Below are positions 4,285 to 11,477 of a stretch of 11,477 nt of DNA, piece after piece. Origin of the DNA: a virus. Its lineage: Duplodnaviria > Heunggongvirae > Uroviricota > Caudoviricetes. Location: IMG/VR virus record IMGVR_UViG_2778261182_000004, one strand, 5' to 3'. The first letter of the stretch is position 1; each line of letters begins with the position of its first letter. The notes under the pieces were generated by a model that was not told where the DNA came from, did not search any database, and saw only the letters and a list, made by a program, of their open reading frames with translations. The translations under genes and the position numbers were made by a program.

Positions 4285-5502
4285 TTATTTGCCAGTGAGC
4301 GCCTTAATGGCTGCCACATCTTCCAGCACACAGTCAAAACGATGGAAAGCCAGAAATGCCACCTGATCAAACTCAGCATAACGCTCAACCAGACGTTTCA
4401 GTTCCATATAAGTAACGCGGCGAATGATAAAGCGGTTGAAATCCCCCAGGAAAATGAATTTTTTCCCGGTACCAATCCCGTCAATAGCCTGATCAATAAC
4501 ATAAGGGATCCCCAGCACAGTAGCTGGCGTACCGCCTGCAATATCCGGCAGCCATAACGGGCGTTTCTGTCCATCCTCCATCTCTTCAATAGTCTGCAAT
4601 GTGGCATCATTGAATGCCCAGCGGTATTTCGGCCCACCACGATATGCCGGATCAATGGCATGTTTCAGGGCATTCATTTCTTTCCAGGTGAAAGCGGCAG
4701 AAGCTGCAGTCTGGATAGTTCCCGTCACCGACGCTGCCAGCCCTTTTGGCTGTAACGGTGATCCCGTTCCGGTCCCCTGAACCAGATATTTTGCCTCTCC
4801 ACGACCAATACGCTGGGCAATACGGTTTGCCAGATAAGATTCAATATCCACCCCACTGTCCTGGAGCAGCTCATTGGACACACGAATTATTTTTGATGAC
4901 AGCTTTTTAGCCCCCAGAATAGCAGTCCCGAACGTCACATCCTGCTCCGTTGCGGCTGTATTTTCCGCCAGCAGTTCGCCCTCTTCAGTCGTGCCGTCAG
5001 ACGTTGACCAGGTGATATCCTGCCCGGTTGATGTGGTCAGAAGTTGTGCCACACTGGCAATCCCGCCATAAGCCTTCATGGTGTCAATGATTTTGTTACG
5101 CATCTGCGTGGGCACCGTATATCCGCCCTGAGAATCCGTTGTTACACTCTGAGCCCGCAGTTCACGCATCAGATTACGCTCTTCAGCATTCAGTTCTGCA
5201 AATCCGGCACGCAGAAAACGGTTAAATGCCGCAGCACGCTTCTCTTCCACCGCCTTTTTCCCGTTCTCCGCCTCATTATTCTGGCGCTCTTCCGGCCCGG
5301 ACTCATCCACATATGCCTGATCCTGACGGCGCAACTCTTCTTCACGGGCGATTTGCTCATCCAGCGCATCCAGCTCAGCTTTCGCCCTGTTCCACTCAGC
5401 CCGTTGCTCATCAGTCCATGCGTTATCACCAATTTTTTCATGCAGTGCACGCATATCCTTTGCAATGGTGTTTCGTTTTTGCTTCATCTCATGAAGTTTC
5501 AT
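4285..5502 (-). CDS. Major capsid protein, HK97 fold, with N-terminal delta (scaffolding) domain
   Basis: 405 aa; the first ~100 residues are charged and Ala/Glu/Arg-rich (coiled-coil-like), followed by a capsid-like body. No separate scaffold gene. Confidence 0.9.
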   Translation of the reverse strand: MKLHEMKQKRNTIAKDMRALHEKIGDNAWTDEQRAEWNRAKAELDALDEQIAREEELRRQDQAYVDESGPEERQNNEAENGKKAVEEKRAAAFNRFLRAGFAELNAEERNLMRELRAQSVTTDSQGGYTVPTQMRNKIIDTMKAYGGIASVAQLLTTSTGQDITWSTSDGTTEEGELLAENTAATEQDVTFGTAILGAKKLSSKIIRVSNELLQDSGVDIESYLANRIAQRIGRGEAKYLVQGTGTGSPLQPKGLAASVTGTIQTAASAAFTWKEMNALKHAIDPAYRGGPKYRWAFNDATLQTIEEMEDGQKRPLWLPDIAGGTPATVLGIPYVIDQAIDGIGTGKKFIFLGDFNRFIIRRVTYMELKRLVERYAEFDQVAFLAFHRFDCVLEDVAAIKALTGK

Positions 5503-5516
5503 CGTCAGTAGTATCC

Positions 5517-6116
5517 TTATGCATTAAGAAGGGTCAAAAGGCGCTCACGCGCCATTCGTTCATTAACAGCTTTCTTCAGCGCACCACTCGCCCGCGCTTC
5601 CTGCCAGGCTTTCATTGAGCGGACACCGGAGTCTGCGTCCTGATAGGCCGGATATGTCACCGGGCTGACATCATACAGACGGGAAATGCGCGTGATTTCC
5701 CGGATAACAATCCCCTCGTCATCTCCATACCAGCTCTCTCCGTCACGAGCGACACGAAACGCGAACGAGGACTGATTAATGTCACCACGCAACATCGGAG
5801 ACAGCACCAGGTCACAAATAGTCGGAGTATCCGGTGCAACAATGTCATAACGTAAACCGCGTTCATCCACCGACAATGACAACGTGCCGGCAGAACTTCG
5901 TCCGAGAATGAAATTAGGATCATGATTAAACAAGCCTCGTACATCATCATTCAGTACATCGTCAAAAGCCCCCGGCTTGATGATTTCACGAAATCCCCAC
6001 AGAGGTTCTGAACGACTGTTAAATACCGAGCCATACCCCAGAATGTGGGTCGGGGCATTATCATATTGTTCCGCCCGCACCTCCCCGCTGTAACAGCGCG
6101 TTTCACGGTCATTCAT
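5517..6116 (-). CDS. Prohead maturation protease (HK97 family)
   Basis: 199 aa, between portal and major capsid gene, the canonical position and size for this protease family. Confidence 0.85.
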   Translation of the reverse strand: MNDRETRCYSGEVRAEQYDNAPTHILGYGSVFNSRSEPLWGFREIIKPGAFDDVLNDDVRGLFNHDPNFILGRSSAGTLSLSVDERGLRYDIVAPDTPTICDLVLSPMLRGDINQSSFAFRVARDGESWYGDDEGIVIREITRISRLYDVSPVTYPAYQDADSGVRSMKAWQEARASGALKKAVNERMARERLLTLLNA

Positions 6117-7335
6117 CGTTCTTTTCCTCTTTGCCTTTCGTATCTTTAAAGTTATTCAACGGATTTGCTGCATTTACGCTGACCAGCATTTCATCCAGAC
6201 CGTCAACCGGGTTCATGTCCTCAAATGCCCTGGCTTCATTCCGGCTCATCCAGCCATCTGTAATGGCAAAGTGATAGAACTGCGCACGCTCCTGTGGGGT
6301 CCCACGGAGCAACCCCGTGAGGTTGAAACGAACGTAATACCCGGCAGCCCGTTCTGTACGGGTAAACAGGCGACGGTTAAGCTCCTGCTCCCAGTTCGCA
6401 ACCCAGGGCATCATCGTGTAGCGAACAAACTGAATCGCCTGCTGCGTAATATTCGAAAATGTGGCTTTTTCCAGGTCATTAATCATGTGCGCCGGGACAT
6501 TAAAAATCCCGGCAATCATCGACCTGTTCAGCTTGGTCATATCAATGATCTGAGCATCCACCGGAGAAACTGTCAGAGCGCGGTAATCCAGTTGCGCAGG
6601 CAGCAGCATGGTTTTATTTTCCTGACTGCGAAGCGCTGTCACCGCCCGCTGCCACATATTTTTAAGCCTGCTCCAGCTCTGTTCGTTCAGTTCATTTTTC
6701 ACAGAGATAATCCCGGCAGGACGGGCATTACCGTTAAAAAAAGCACTGGTATACTGCTGACCACTCATTCCCATACCAATGGTTTCAGCATGCTGCATGA
6801 TCGGACTCAGTCCCATTTTCTGATTGTTTCCCAGCGCCCTGATATGGATCATGTCGTCCGGACTTACCGCAAATGCACCCTCTTCGTTATACACACCGTA
6901 GGTATGACGCCCTCCGGTGTTAAGTAACGTGGTTTCCCATGGCATACAGCATTCAAGACTGGTAACCTCGCCACGACGATTACGTTTCACCCACGTATAA
7001 CCATTGCCCCACCCCAGCACATGACGCTGCTTCAGTTCCCGCCACTTATAGCTGGTCTGCCAGGCATTCGGTTCATCATGAACGAGCCAGAACAACGGGT
7101 GATCGCGTGCCGGCTGAACATGCTCATTCGTTTTTCGCATCACATGCAGGGGCATCTGAGCCACACTGGATGAAATAACATAAATACAGGCATAGACAGC
7201 AGCCAGCTTCATGGATGTTTCCGGACTGACATACACATCCCGGGCAAAAATATTATCCGTCTCAGCGGCCTCTCCGGTTACCGGAACCGAGGGATTTTCC
7301 AGAGGCTCACTGCGAAACAGAGCATCAAGAAGCAT
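6109..7335 (-). CDS. Portal protein
   Basis: 408 aa; AGGAG 6-7 nt upstream of the ATG; follows TerL and its stop overlaps the protease start. Confidence 0.85.
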   Translation of the reverse strand: MLLDALFRSEPLENPSVPVTGEAAETDNIFARDVYVSPETSMKLAAVYACIYVISSSVAQMPLHVMRKTNEHVQPARDHPLFWLVHDEPNAWQTSYKWRELKQRHVLGWGNGYTWVKRNRRGEVTSLECCMPWETTLLNTGGRHTYGVYNEEGAFAVSPDDMIHIRALGNNQKMGLSPIMQHAETIGMGMSGQQYTSAFFNGNARPAGIISVKNELNEQSWSRLKNMWQRAVTALRSQENKTMLLPAQLDYRALTVSPVDAQIIDMTKLNRSMIAGIFNVPAHMINDLEKATFSNITQQAIQFVRYTMMPWVANWEQELNRRLFTRTERAAGYYVRFNLTGLLRGTPQERAQFYHFAITDGWMSRNEARAFEDMNPVDGLDEMLVSVNAANPLNNFKDTKGKEEKNDE

Positions 7336-7465
7336 GTTTTCTCCTCATGGACACCACCAGTGCATAAAGCAGCAGCAAACAGCCAGACAGCATCAGAGAC
7401 GCTGGCAGACCTGCATACAGATAAACGCCAGCAGTGAGCAGACCGAAACCGATCAGCCCGGTCAT
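7325..7465 (-). CDS. Hypothetical 46-aa hydrophobic protein in the TerL-portal gap
   Basis: My own translation: MTGLIGFGLLTAGVYLYAGLPASLMLSGCLLLLYALVVSMRRKHAS. ATG at 7465..7463, 17 nt after the TerL stop; TGA at 7327..7325, overlapping the portal start by 11 nt. No clear Shine-Dalgarno. Not in the ORF track. Confidence 0.3.
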   Translation of the reverse strand: MTGLIGFGLLTAGVYLYAGLPASLMLSGCLLLLYALVVSMRRKHAS

Positions 7466-7482
7466 ATCAGTAATAAGCTGTT

Positions 7483-9240
7483 TCACAGAATTAACAGGTC
7501 CTCATCAGGATCAAGCGTGGACAGAAAGTCATTCACGTCCCCGCCATTTACCAGAAAGCGGCTCATGGCCGTAAAAAGCGCAACAGGGCCGTCGATTTTG
7601 GCTTCAGGCGTGGATTTATTCGGGAAGATATTGTCGTTTTTGTCCGGTTTTACCGTAACGTTAGACATCATCCAGTTCATGACCGGATGATTGCTGTGAT
7701 GGAAACGCCCGGCATAGACCAGTGATTCCGTTTCCTTCATGGCCTCTGACAGATTGCGGACCGTCTGCGGAACCTCCACCAGCGGTATCCCTTCTTCAGC
7801 CAGTGCCAGGCTGAACTGCATCGCGCTCCACGGGTCAAATCCCAGTTCCCTGAGGTTTTCACCACCAATCCATTCCAGTAAGTCACTTTTTATCTGAGCA
7901 TGATCGATAACATCACCATCCGTCAGAATCAGCTTATCCATCTCCGCCCACTTCCGGTAAAGTTCTGCCTGCTGCCGCGAGCATCGTTCCAGCCGTCCTT
8001 CCGGGAGCCAGAATTTAAAATCGGCATGAACATGCCCGTTATCCGTTCGCCAGAGTTTTGCCGCCGCACAGATATCAATCTTATGAGCAAGGTCAACGCC
8101 GACCCACATGGGATACGTTTTCAGCTCATGTCGTGGGGCAATGTATTCGCACTTCTCCCACTTAATCATGTCCATCCAGGCAGACTCGGCAGTGACCCAC
8201 ACATTCATGTGTTTGGTAAAAAAATTCACCCGCGCAGAGACCTGCTCCTTCGCTTTTTTCGCCAGACGACGCAGATCATCCCAGCGTTTACAGATGCCCA
8301 GGCCAGGATTCGCTTTCTGCCAGACCGTTTCATCAAACGGATCATCTCCCTCATCGAGGGTGTAAATGATCGCAAAGTAAGAGTCGTCTTTTACAGCGCC
8401 CTCCACGTCGCTGTTATAGCCACGCAATACCTTGATGGCGTAATCACGCTGCTCGTAACAAATCCCTTCCTTGTTAAACCCTGCCGTGGTGATACCAAAT
8501 AAAAGGGACTGCAGACGGGCACCGGTTGCCGTTTCCAGAACGTCCCACACGTCACGGGTTTTATGTGCATGCAGCTCATCAATAATGGCGCAGTGGATGT
8601 TCAGACCGTCCAGGTTGTTTGCATCCGAGGAAAGCGGTTCAAATTTTGATGCGCTCTGCTCCTGGTAAATCGCCAGCTTGTTGAAGTCAAACAACCGCCC
8701 GAGTGTCGACCGGGCTTTTCTGACCATATTTTTGGCGTCTTCAAACACGATTCTGGCCTGATCACGCGTGGTTGCGGCTGAATACACCTCAGCCCCGCCT
8801 TCACCATCTGCCCCCGTCATATACAGACCAATACCCGATGACAGGGTTGATTTTGCGTTTTTACGGGCAACTTCGTTGTACGCCGTCCGGAACCGGCGCA
8901 CCATCACCGGGCGTCCGCTGCCATCGCTGCGCATGACAACTTCCCCGGTCTCTTCATTCACCAGCGGAATGACAAAACCAAAAATATTAATGAGGATAAA
9001 TACATGCCAGTCCATCAATTCAATGGGCTGGCCTGCCAGCGCCCCTTTCACATGAGGCACAAATTTGTAGAAATTCAGGATGTGCTGCGCACGGGGTTCA
9101 CTGAAATAAATCCCCCGCTCTTCGCCATACTTCAGATCATCAAGAAAACGCTGGCAGGCCAGACGGACAAATTCGCCAGCGACTATTTCTCCTGCAACAA
9201 CACGTTCGGCGTAGCGGATCCCGTCAGCCACTTTTGCCAT
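7483..9240 (-). CDS. Terminase large subunit
   Basis: 585 aa; ATPase-like N-terminal half with a Walker-A-like KNAKST, nuclease-like C-terminal half; located between TerS and portal. Confidence 0.9.
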   Translation of the reverse strand: MAKVADGIRYAERVVAGEIVAGEFVRLACQRFLDDLKYGEERGIYFSEPRAQHILNFYKFVPHVKGALAGQPIELMDWHVFILINIFGFVIPLVNEETGEVVMRSDGSGRPVMVRRFRTAYNEVARKNAKSTLSSGIGLYMTGADGEGGAEVYSAATTRDQARIVFEDAKNMVRKARSTLGRLFDFNKLAIYQEQSASKFEPLSSDANNLDGLNIHCAIIDELHAHKTRDVWDVLETATGARLQSLLFGITTAGFNKEGICYEQRDYAIKVLRGYNSDVEGAVKDDSYFAIIYTLDEGDDPFDETVWQKANPGLGICKRWDDLRRLAKKAKEQVSARVNFFTKHMNVWVTAESAWMDMIKWEKCEYIAPRHELKTYPMWVGVDLAHKIDICAAAKLWRTDNGHVHADFKFWLPEGRLERCSRQQAELYRKWAEMDKLILTDGDVIDHAQIKSDLLEWIGGENLRELGFDPWSAMQFSLALAEEGIPLVEVPQTVRNLSEAMKETESLVYAGRFHHSNHPVMNWMMSNVTVKPDKNDNIFPNKSTPEAKIDGPVALFTAMSRFLVNGGDVNDFLSTLDPDEDLLIL

Positions 9241-9722
9241 CAGTCTCTCGCTTTTAAAAGCTCTGCCAGCGGATCAACATCATCCGGTCCGGCGGTATTT
9301 ACTTTCGCCCGGCTTGCCGGTGACATACCAAATTCTGCAAGCATCGCCCGGATCCGCTTCCAGGCATCCGCTTTCATCGCAGCAGCCGGGTGTGCCTTAA
9401 TCAGCACATCACCGTTCTGCGTTTCCGTGCGGTAGGTGTACCCCTCAACATCGAGTGTTTCGCAGTGATGCCGGTATTCGGTATAGGCTTCCACCAGTAG
9501 CTCAAGCGCACGCGCATCAAGCTGAGAAATGATCCCTTCCGCATTCAGCTCTTCTGCCATTCGCCTGAACCAGTACTTCCCCTGCGCCCCTAAATGTCGC
9601 GGAGTTTTAGGTATCCCTTTTTCATCCTTTTTAGCGGTTTTTTTGGGGTCTTTAACGGGGCGCTTTGAGGGGTTGCCTCGTATCAAATGCAGGCGTGGCG
9701 GGGTTTTCGGGGGTCCAGACAT
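9240..9722 (-). CDS. Terminase small subunit (P27-family-like)
   Basis: N-terminal PPKTPPRLHLIRGNPSKRP resembles the GNPxKRP motif I recall for P27-family small terminases. Its TGA stop shares an ATGA overlap with the TerL start. Confidence 0.75.
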   Translation of the reverse strand: MSGPPKTPPRLHLIRGNPSKRPVKDPKKTAKKDEKGIPKTPRHLGAQGKYWFRRMAEELNAEGIISQLDARALELLVEAYTEYRHHCETLDVEGYTYRTETQNGDVLIKAHPAAAMKADAWKRIRAMLAEFGMSPASRAKVNTAGPDDVDPLAELLKARD

Positions 9723-9869: not shown

Positions 9870-10220
9870 TCAATTGATGCGTTCGCGCGCTGTTTTTGCT
9901 TTATGACAGGGCCAGCACAGACTCTGCAGGTTACTGTCTGCATCCGTGCCACCATGAGCTTTCGGAATGATGTGGTCCACAGTTCTGGCTTCAACGGCTA
10001 TCCCATTGCGCAGGCAGTTCTGACACAGATGATTATCACGCTTCAGTATGCGCGCACGTATGGCATCCCATTTCGAGCCATAGCCACGCTGGTGGCGGCT
10101 CAGTCCGCGCTGGTGCTGCACCCAGCCTTCACCCCGATGTTTATCGCAGTAACCAGAACTGTCTGTGGTTGTACCTGCACATCCACGCTTACGGCAGGCG
10201 CGTGGGATTAGTGATGGCAT
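9870..10220 (-). CDS. HNH endonuclease, terminase-associated (HK97 gp74-like)
   Basis: Cys and His pattern (C..C...H...C..C, DHIIPKAHGG, CWPCH) typical of HNH zinc-finger nucleases; GAGGAG upstream of the ATG; sits immediately upstream of the small terminase gene. Confidence 0.85.
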   Translation of the reverse strand: MPSLIPRACRKRGCAGTTTDSSGYCDKHRGEGWVQHQRGLSRHQRGYGSKWDAIRARILKRDNHLCQNCLRNGIAVEARTVDHIIPKAHGGTDADSNLQSLCWPCHKAKTARERIN

Positions 10221-10263: not shown

Positions 10264-10446
10264 TCAGTTCTGCATACACTGCCGGACACTATCAACAATT
10301 TCGCAGACCTGAGAAGCTGTATCGAAAAGCTGGTGCGCCTTATCCAGGCTGACGCATCCCACCAATAAAAAAGGCACCAGTATCGCTACCAGTGCCCATT
10401 TCGCCGCCGTTCGCGGCATTCTGTGTGTCCAGTGTTTTCGGCTCAT
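10264..10446 (-). CDS. Hypothetical small lipoprotein or signal-anchored protein with Cys-containing C-terminal region
   Basis: ORF track 60 aa. Segment MPRTAAKWALVAILVPFLLVGC is a canonical signal peptide ending in a lipobox-like LVGC; the short mature part has three Cys (VCEIVDSVRQC). The real start may be the internal Met (ATG 10419..10417). Confidence 0.45.
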   Translation of the reverse strand: MSRKHWTHRMPRTAAKWALVAILVPFLLVGCVSLDKAHQLFDTASQVCEIVDSVRQCMQN

Positions 10447-10789: not shown

Positions 10790-11335
10790 TTAAACTGCTA
10801 CGCGCTCTTTCATCCAGCCGTAGACAAACGACTCGTTGGCCTCGCGTTTTTCTGCCAGCTCCAGATAGCGGTCGCCCTGCGTGCAATTCAGCGCCTTCAG
10901 CATCACCAGTTCGCCGTCTTTGCCGCGTTTTTGCAGATAAGTCCGTAGTGCATTAATCGTGCGGGGGCCGATACGCCCGTCTGCGTCCATATCCGGGAAC
11001 AATTTGCCTTGCAGGTTGAAAACGTTCAGCCAGCGCTGGAGCATTTTCGATGCTACGGACGGCCCCATATTCACACCGGTATCACACAACTCTGCAGCAA
11101 TATCAGAGGATAATGCGGCCACCTGATCAAAGCGTGGTCCGAACCAGTAATCCTCCTCAAGGATTTCCAGCGCCTGTTCGCGTGTCAGGTCACGCATATC
11201 GCCCTGATATCCGTGAGCGCGGGCGACTTTTTCCGTAATACCCCATTTTGTCGGTCCGCCTTTATCATCCGGGTGATTGACGTAACCGCCCTCTTTTCCC
11301 AGAACTTCGTCAAAAATTTCATCTTTCGACTTCAT
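10790..11335 (-). CDS. Endolysin, GH108-like N-terminal domain with probable peptidoglycan-binding C-terminal domain
   Basis: N-terminal motif EGGYVNHPDDKGGPTKWGIT matches my recollection of the glycoside hydrolase 108 family; no signal or SAR segment. The ORF track starts at 11356 on a TTG codon; an ATG at 11335..11333 preceded by GAAGG about 7 nt upstream is the more likely start. Confidence 0.75.
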   Translation of the reverse strand: MKSKDEIFDEVLGKEGGYVNHPDDKGGPTKWGITEKVARAHGYQGDMRDLTREQALEILEEDYWFGPRFDQVAALSSDIAAELCDTGVNMGPSVASKMLQRWLNVFNLQGKLFPDMDADGRIGPRTINALRTYLQKRGKDGELVMLKALNCTQGDRYLELAEKREANESFVYGWMKERVAV

Positions 11336-11336
11336 A

Positions 11337-11477
11337 TCAGCGCCTTCGTAATACAAAGATTTTTGAAACGTTTCCGCGTGCGCGAATCACCAACACGCAG
11401 AACAGCAGATTAAGCCCAACCGCCAGCCAGTTCGCCGCTAACGGGCGACCGCACAGATAGCTGAGTGGCGCAAAGGC
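11337..11477 (-). CDS. Putative holin, C-terminal part only (5' end beyond window)
   Basis: My own translation of the minus strand from 11477 gives 46 open codons, AFAPLSYLCGRPLAANWLAVGLNLLFCVLVIRARGNVSKIFVLRRR, ending TGA at 11339..11337, one nt before the endolysin ATG. Hydrophobic stretch plus basic tail and position directly upstream of the endolysin fit a holin. Not in the ORF track because it is incomplete. Confidence 0.4.
   Translation of the reverse strand, partial: AFAPLSYLCGRPLAANWLAVGLNLLFCVLVIRARGNVSKIFVLRRR

Follow-up and report, generated by a model that had tools for sequence, protein, structure and literature searches.

A conserved small gene encoding a predicted membrane hairpin at the terminase-portal junction of HK97-fold prophages

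In the 11,477-nucleotide stretch of viral DNA held as IMG/VR record IMGVR_UViG_2778261182_000004, hereafter called the window, the genes encoding the terminase large subunit (TerL) and the portal protein follow each other on the minus strand, and the 147 bp between the TerL stop codon and the portal ATG (positions 7336-7482) raise the question of whether they are a spacer or part of a gene and, if the latter, what the product of that gene might do. A preliminary description, made from the sequence alone, had drawn attention to an ATG-initiated, hydrophobic open reading frame (ORF) of 46 codons with the C-terminal tail MRRKHAS in this gap, which could encode a small membrane protein or have arisen by chance. 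The coordinates of the gap agree with that description, and the frame is found on the minus strand, where it opens at ATG 7465-7463, ends at TGA 7327-7325 and encodes the hydrophobic product MTGLIGFGLLTAGVYLYAGLPASLMLSGCLLLLYALVVSMRRKHAS. Its 3' end lies, as described, over the portal ribosome-binding site and start, with AGGAG 7345-7341 and ATG 7335-7333 both inside it. Taken as a whole, our results are best explained by a genuine gene of 53 codons that encodes a membrane hairpin, is translationally chained to its neighbors and has an accessory role on the portal side, a combined reading that we consider moderately probable.

To place the frame in a comparative context, related loci from bacterial genomes (61) and from IMG/VR (80) were gathered via portal alignments. 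The window contains 48 mechanically called ORFs of at least 60 amino acids, so an ORF of this length in one sequence is no more than chance would give. Its conservation goes far beyond chance. The small gene is conserved in more than 140 related loci. Among 31 unique 53-codon sequences, with a median nucleotide identity of 61%, not one in-frame stop codon was observed, whereas each of the other five frames was stopped in 19-31 of the 31 sequences. Column entropies at codon positions 1, 2 and 3 of these sequences were 0.92, 0.56 and 1.35, variability thus being highest at position 3 and lowest at position 2, which is the pattern of a coding sequence rich in hydrophobic residues. The ratio of nonsynonymous to synonymous substitution rates (dN/dS), pooled by the Nei-Gojobori method over 272 unsaturated pairs of close IMG/VR relatives, was 0.24 for the small gene, 0.05 for the portal gene and 0.19 for the last 150 codons of TerL, values that serve as an indicator and not as a formal test, the pairs being non-independent.

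The preliminary description had suggested that homologues be compared for stops or frameshifts in the gap. The ORF was intact in 80 of 80 IMG/VR relatives and in an Achromobacter prophage found via a protein homologue, and disruptions were met only in two visibly decaying prophages: in Ca. Symbiopectobacterium endolongispinus (locus L063, 2855-3109) the small ORF is frameshifted beside a truncated portal gene, and in Xenorhabdus beddingii (L066, 1363-3483) the TerL tail and the small gene have been deleted, leaving an in-frame TerL-portal fusion of 706 amino acids. On these comparisons the frame is almost certainly protein-coding and under purifying selection, and fixed in a module composed of HNH endonuclease, terminase small subunit (TerS), TerL, the small gene, portal, S78 protease and HK97-fold capsid genes in gamma- and betaproteobacterial prophages. 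Of the two options offered earlier, the small membrane protein is supported by the conserved frame, length, hydrophobicity and basic tail, by the dN/dS of about 0.24 and by the hairpin predicted with AlphaFold2, and the chance ORF has the comparative data against it, namely the stop-free frame, the codon periodicity and the intact ORF in all 80 IMG/VR loci. An antisense ORF of 159 amino acids on the plus strand (window 7211-7690), which runs over the end of TerL, the small gene and the start of the portal gene, was considered and rejected as spurious, all three antisense frames being stopped in 28-31 of the 31 relatives.

The phylogenetic range of the gene is broad. A tblastn search against phage genomes detected the ORF at the TerL-portal junction of Escherichia, Morganella, Edwardsiella, Klebsiella, Salmonella and Shigella (SfV) phages, in which it has 52-53 codons, starts in an ATGA or GTGA on the TerL stop and ends 11 nt inside the portal gene, except in Salmonella phage F1055, where an ORF of 52 codons ends about 7 nt into the portal gene. 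Nearly all of the 61 genome loci encode a hydrophobic ORF of 47-69 codons, including those of Halomonas, Marinobacter, Salinicola, Pseudomonas and Idiomarina, whose portal proteins are only 57-62% identical to that of the window. The position between TerL and portal was recorded in 6 phage records, about 57 of the 61 genome loci, all 80 IMG/VR loci and 3 contexts found through homologues.

The comparison also bears on the start codon. In the window the frame stays open for seven codons (21 nt) upstream of the internal ATG, up to a GTG at 7486-7484. The start lies on the TerL stop as ATGA in 61 and as GTGA in 19 of the 80 IMG/VR loci, and 77 of them have the start 151 nt before the portal start together with the 11-nt portal overlap; in distant loci the small gene starts at most 10 nt downstream of the TerL stop. 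Column 8 of an alignment of 76 sequences, which corresponds to the internal ATG, holds L, V or I and not Met in most of them, and residues that precede it are conserved, with a basic K/R at position 2 and an acidic D/E at position 7. Since the relatives always have an ATG or GTG on the TerL stop and residue 8 is mostly not Met, the true start is most likely GTG 7486 and not the ATG at 7465 proposed earlier, giving a gene of 53 codons at 7325-7486. With its start over the TerL stop, no real gap between TerL and portal remains, and in practice the gene should be called from the GTG or ATG that overlaps the TerL stop. The features of the gene and its two junctions are listed here.

7325..7486, minus strand: small membrane-protein gene, 53 codons plus stop, product (V->M)KQLITDMTGLIGFGLLTAGVYLYAGLPASLMLSGCLLLLYALVVSMRRKHAS (ORF listing; coding sequences of RefSeq E. 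coli and phage Evi; PHROG 7105)
7483..7486, minus strand: GTGA overlap of the small-gene GTG start (7486-7484) with the TerL TGA stop (7485-7483) (sequence)
7463..7465, minus strand: internal ATG, codon 8 of the small gene (Met not conserved among relatives)
7412..7483, minus strand: predicted helix 1, residues 2-25, hydrophobic core about 8-23 (AlphaFold2 and column conservation)
7411-7409, minus strand: predicted turn at the invariant G26 (AlphaFold2 and alignment)
7334..7408, minus strand: predicted helix 2, residues 27-51, hydrophobic core about 28-46 (AlphaFold2 and alignment)
7328..7348, minus strand: basic C-terminal tail MRRKHAS (alignment and sequence)
7341..7345, minus strand: portal Shine-Dalgarno sequence AGGAG, 5 nt before the portal ATG (sequence)
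7325..7335, minus strand: 11-nt overlap of the small gene, with its TGA at 7327-7325, and the portal gene, with its ATG at 7335-7333 (sequence)

No Shine-Dalgarno sequence is present before the internal ATG at 7465 or before the small gene, which bears out the earlier remark that none is clear. Just before its start, the sequence codes for the conserved end of TerL (...LDPDEDLLIL), and its bases show no conservation of the kind expected of a ribosome-binding site. A start coupled to the TerL stop would account for this, the conserved 4-nt overlap being a classic termination-reinitiation arrangement in which ribosomes ending TerL would restart at the overlapping GTGA or ATGA, with GTGA 7483..7486 as the likely site. 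At the other end, the portal Shine-Dalgarno sequence sits within the Arg codons of the small protein's tail (AGG AGA), purine-rich equivalents (AGGGGG, GGAG) are found in relatives, and ribosomes ending the small ORF would stop 8 nt past the portal ATG, having passed the portal Shine-Dalgarno sequence in its last codons. Because of the overlaps at both ends and the Shine-Dalgarno sequence within the ORF, we consider it probable that TerL, the small gene and the portal gene are translationally chained and that the small protein is a late product, translated from the mRNA that also encodes TerL and portal. A programmed frameshift joining TerL to the hairpin was also considered and rejected: the small ORF lies in the -1 frame relative to TerL, but this frame is closed by TGA TGA seven codons before the GTG, the open stretch contains no slippery heptamer, and the upstream nucleotides are not conserved.

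The predicted protein is a helical hairpin. An AlphaFold2 model built with the alignment of 76 sequences has helices at residues 2-25 and 27-51 (mean pLDDT 85.6). Invariant or near-invariant positions in this alignment are M1, G10, G13, G20, Y22, G26, L31, G35 and A42, and position 7 is acidic (D/E) in all 76 sequences. Helix 1 thus carries the basic K/R2, the acidic D/E7, the near-invariant G10, the invariant G13 and G20 and the conserved Y22, and helix 2 carries the conserved A30, L31, L38 and A42 and the invariant G35. Across the family, the net charge of the C-terminal tail averages +2.8. Homologues whose ORFs end before the portal start region, such as those at loci L045 and L053 and those of Halomonas and Marinobacter, have longer basic tails, so that the tail belongs to the protein as such and is more than a consequence of the need to encode the portal ribosome-binding site. 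From the model and the alignment, the product is very likely a two-helix hairpin inserted in the inner membrane, with both ends predicted to be cytoplasmic by the positive-inside rule (basic tail; K/R2, D/E7) and a very short periplasmic turn predicted at G26. The small residues G10, G13 and G20 of helix 1 and G35 and A42 of helix 2 suggest tight helix packing, and the hairpin possibly oligomerises through them. Fold searches of the model against the PDB and BFVD returned nothing with an E-value below 0.6, as is expected for a hairpin of 53 residues. The idea that helix 1 is a signal peptide or the leader of a lipoprotein was rejected, since neither a Cys nor an A-x-A site is conserved, the n-region would have to accommodate an invariant acidic residue, and helix 1 is followed by a second helix that is itself conserved.

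As an object the gene is already known, being a member of PHROG 7105, a family whose function is unassigned. The match covers the full length (E 9.4e-20, residues 1-52 against profile positions 1-52 of 52), and eight diverse homologues, among them those of Halomonas, Pseudomonas, Idiomarina, Xenorhabdus and SfV, match the same family with E-values from 1e-9 to 3e-22. A far weaker match was obtained to PHROG 502 (E 1.3e-6, residues 4-50), annotated as 'membrane protein' in the category moron, auxiliary metabolic gene and host takeover; other members of the family matched it at 1.7e-5 to 0.04 or not at all. The window protein also has a weak match to PHROG 4810 (E 3e-4). Scans of the small protein found no Pfam family even at E <= 1 and no NCBIfam match at that database's cut-off.

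Although the preliminary description took the ORF to be unlisted, RefSeq, GenBank and UniProt hold it as a hypothetical or putative membrane protein. The exact 53-residue sequence occurs on at least 1000 contigs, where it is deposited as a hypothetical protein; it is UniProt entry A0A0G3JUA5_ECOLX, appears in RefSeq as 'MULTISPECIES: hypothetical protein [Enterobacteriaceae]' and in the record of phage Evi as 'FIG00643696: hypothetical protein'. The version annotated in RefSeq and GenBank has 53 codons; in a few E. coli records the 46-residue version appears, as 'putative membrane protein'. Of 5426 complete E. coli genomes, 931 contain similar DNA. When 1.8 billion representatives were searched exhaustively with the single sequence, 20 matches were obtained; a profile search gave 149 clusters at 90% identity, which include Achromobacter and many Pseudomonas and Halomonas proteins and are all unnamed or called "membrane protein". 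A literature search did not find a paper characterising the small protein. In the SfV reference genome (L004, NC_003444.1) the small ORF is intact but unannotated (locus 1501-1662, record 2289-2450, MKSLIADVIGLAGFGLLTCGVYLQFGMAPALILSGALLLVGALAMARRGTRAA), and the record starts the portal gene 48 nt upstream of the start used by all relatives (locus 1604 versus 1652); the portal start and the missing ORF are probably a mis-annotation.

The late operon of the window lies on the minus strand and is transcribed in the order endolysin, HNH, TerS, TerL, small gene, portal, protease, capsid. The neighbors of the small gene are as follows.

10790-11356, minus strand: endolysin (GH108 and PG_binding_3), upstream of HNH and TerS
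9870..10220, minus strand: HNH endonuclease, which opens the conserved module (Pfam HNH, E 4e-16)
9240..9722, minus strand: terminase small subunit, P27/Terminase_4 family
7483..9240, minus strand: terminase large subunit TerL, 585 amino acids (Pfam TerL_ATPase and TerL_nuclease)
6109..7335, minus strand: portal protein, 408 amino acids (Pfam Phage_portal, E 1.9e-100)
5517-6116, minus strand: S78 prohead protease
4285-5502, minus strand: HK97-fold capsid protein

The same order of HNH, TerS (Terminase_4), TerL, small gene, portal, S78 protease, capsid and connector is found in Achromobacter, in Pseudomonas veronii and on a metagenome contig. Within the relatives, two types of TerL occur that are 37-39% identical over 560 residues. 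Five pairs of loci that differ in TerL type (L035/L044, L031/L034, L027/L032, L026/L033 and L036/L061) nevertheless share the last 15 residues of TerL (73-100%), the small protein (72-94%) and the portal protein (87-96%). In the window the C-terminal tail of TerL (7483-7530) reads ...DFLSTLDPDEDLLIL, and the last 15 residues follow the common pattern DFLSxLDPDxDLLxL, which is kept together with the small gene and the portal gene. This sharing across TerL types places a recombination boundary just inside the 3' end of TerL, so that the small gene travels with the portal block. Its co-inheritance with the portal gene is consistent with a portal-related role, and the acidic TerL tail, judged by its sequence, is a candidate portal-docking motif. 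In E. coli KFu019 (L001, 5575-6318), the closest match among E. coli genomes, the TerL upstream of the small gene is annotated as a pseudogene lacking its N-terminus and adjoins a second, different HK97-type head module, the prophage region being rearranged.

A gene of similar character occupies the same position in Pseudomonas phage D3. Its orf3 (L076, 2107-2271) encodes 54 amino acids with two hydrophobic helices and a basic tail (FIRKGLTSE), and, like the window gene, overlaps the TerL stop with its start and the portal start with its end. It belongs to PHROG 4810 (E 2e-26), and hhalign aligned it to the profile of the window family with an E-value of 3.8e-5 and a probability of 71%, over 29 columns only and perhaps partly reflecting transmembrane (TM) composition. 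In contrast to the window family, D3 orf3 lacks the conserved acidic position 7, and D3 has a ClpP-type protease and a portal protein only 26% identical to that of the window. A search with D3 orf3 found 3 clusters; all D3-like IMG/VR loci retain a counterpart, which in the more distant ones is a 53-residue variant. Its sequence and position suggest that D3 orf3 is a remote counterpart of the small gene. A different two-TM ORF of 59 amino acids with a weak match to PHROG 7105 fills the slot between TerL and portal on an IMG/VR contig (L227, 2268-2447), and, taken with D3 orf3, it may point to a broader class of hairpin proteins at this junction, loosely related to one another. The TerL-portal slot is therefore occupied by a small hairpin protein repeatedly but not universally. 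In phage lambda the corresponding slot, between terminase gene A and portal gene B, holds the gene for gpW, a soluble head-completion protein, in contrast to which the window protein is a hydrophobic hairpin with no Pfam match, gpW included.

What such a protein might do is best approached from its attachment to the portal gene. The strict synteny, the co-inheritance with the portal across TerL swaps, the counterpart in D3 and the precedent of T4 gp40 favour a portal-side role in head assembly, exercised at the inner membrane, where the small protein might keep the forming portal ring, or the packaging complex, in place or act as its chaperone; by analogy, we put forward such an accessory role tentatively. 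In phage T4 the portal initiator (gp20 portal) forms on the inner membrane, aided by gp40 (PMC9958956). The small protein is likened to gp40 by function only, as a known precedent of a phage-encoded membrane helper for the portal, and its role would be analogous to the membrane-bound initiation of the portal that gp40 supports, outside the chemistry of packaging. T4 gene 40 is presumably not adjacent to gene 20, and to our knowledge the gp40/gp20 step is the only well-known membrane step in the assembly of tailed-phage heads; we know of none in HK97-like phages, for which current models of head assembly and packaging have no membrane component.

Several observations weigh against the portal-side role and the reading to which it belongs. 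HK97, whose TerL and portal proteins are 29% and 28% identical to those of the window, has no such gene, its TerL stop overlapping the portal start, and portals more distant than the D3-like ones mostly have TerL abutting the portal gene. HK97 DNA packaging in vitro needs only TerL and procapsids (PMC9410871), which makes a role in the packaging chemistry unlikely and any role accessory or lineage-specific. The small protein is 46-62% identical where the portals are 79-88% identical, and evolves several times faster than the portal. The absence of the gene from HK97, the in vitro packaging and the fast evolution together argue against anything essential or catalytic. Furthermore, the co-inheritance with the portal gene may be physical linkage only, the topology is deduced from the positive-inside rule and a model of the monomer, and in the literature searched no experiment showing the translation, membrane location or phenotype of any family member was found.

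A more specific form of the portal-side role, in which the portal vertex of one large lineage of HNH/cos HK97-fold siphophages has in the hairpin a membrane partner devoted to it, must be called speculative and is rather doubtful. Here, the Gly-lined helices would let the hairpin oligomerise in the inner membrane and dock the portal ring or the portal-bound C-terminal tail of TerL, and this docking would lead to prohead nucleation or packaging at the membrane. If true, the hairpin would be the first head-assembly factor at the membrane to be described outside the T4-like phages, with D3 orf3 and similar ORFs as further examples. Whatever its role, a two-helix membrane protein has a fixed place in a head and packaging module whose other products are soluble, and it is retained from Enterobacterales as far as Pseudomonas and Achromobacter. 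It may mark a lineage-specific accessory step, be it the assembly of the portal at the membrane or an unrelated late membrane function, and the remaining interest lies in the question why a large phage lineage has fixed a membrane hairpin between its terminase and portal genes.

Other explanations of the same gene can be weighed against the portal-side role. Small phage membrane proteins often serve superinfection exclusion or host modification, and a moron-type protein that blocks DNA entry of related phages or alters the host envelope, like HK97 gp15 or T4 Imm, would agree with the category of PHROG 502, with the faster divergence of the small protein than of its neighbors and with the grouping of its sequences by host clade, for example into a Xenorhabdus/Proteus/Providencia/Morganella type. 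We nevertheless regard this explanation as unlikely. A scan of the minus strand between 6900 and 8000 for consensus sequences found no sigma-70-like promoter and no intrinsic terminator, and the GC content of the small gene (0.50) is close to that of its neighbors (0.505-0.52). Such composition and the lack of signals of its own argue against a moron, and the gene is not sporadic, since essentially all relatives carry it, probably translationally chained, inside a late structural operon. A PADLOC scan gave no match at E <= 1 for the window protein, D3 orf3 or a Marinobacter homologue, and the match to PHROG 502 is far weaker than that to PHROG 7105. A holin-like protein, accumulating late and aiding or delaying the permeabilisation of the membrane in the manner of a pinholin or antiholin, is distinctly unlikely. 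The likeness is to class II holins and pinholins such as S21 of phage 21, which also have two TM helices, a Gly/Ala-rich first helix and a basic cytoplasmic tail, and late co-expression would fit as well; however, no Pfam family, holin families included, matched at E <= 1, the gene lies in the packaging module and outside the lysis cassette, away from the GH108 endolysin, which has a gene of its own at 10790-11356, and in a related Pseudomonas locus a canonical Phage_holin_3_1 gene is found upstream. At 47-53 amino acids the protein is also shorter than any characterised holin known to us.

In two further explanations the peptide itself is of no consequence. Translation of the short ORF might serve only to link termination of TerL to initiation of the portal protein and so set their ratio, the peptide being incidental and tolerated in the membrane. 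The overlaps at both ends, the portal Shine-Dalgarno sequence inside the ORF and the fast evolution of its sequence would suit such a coupler, as would the direct overlap of TerL and portal with which HK97 manages. We consider a pure coupler very unlikely in view of the dN/dS of 0.24, the four invariant glycines and the always acidic position 7, of hydrophobicity and a basic tail kept across two proteobacterial classes, of a length held at 47-69 codons when a coupler could be much shorter, and of basic tails that persist where the ORF does not overlap the portal start. That the frame is no gene at all, but a chance ORF in a spacer rich in Leu codons, is extremely improbable: 46-53 codons are unremarkable in one sequence and no Shine-Dalgarno sequence precedes them, but chance would not leave the frame free of stops in 31 diverged sequences while every other frame is interrupted, nor produce the coding periodicity, the 80 intact IMG/VR copies and a dN/dS below 1.

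Upstream of the module, between the endolysin and HNH genes, the minus strand of the window contains a further small ORF (10264-10446) of 60 amino acids, for which a Pfam scan gave no match. Its product has a signal-like hydrophobic stretch that ends in ...LLVGC and, from this sequence, may be a lipoprotein, possibly an o-spanin.

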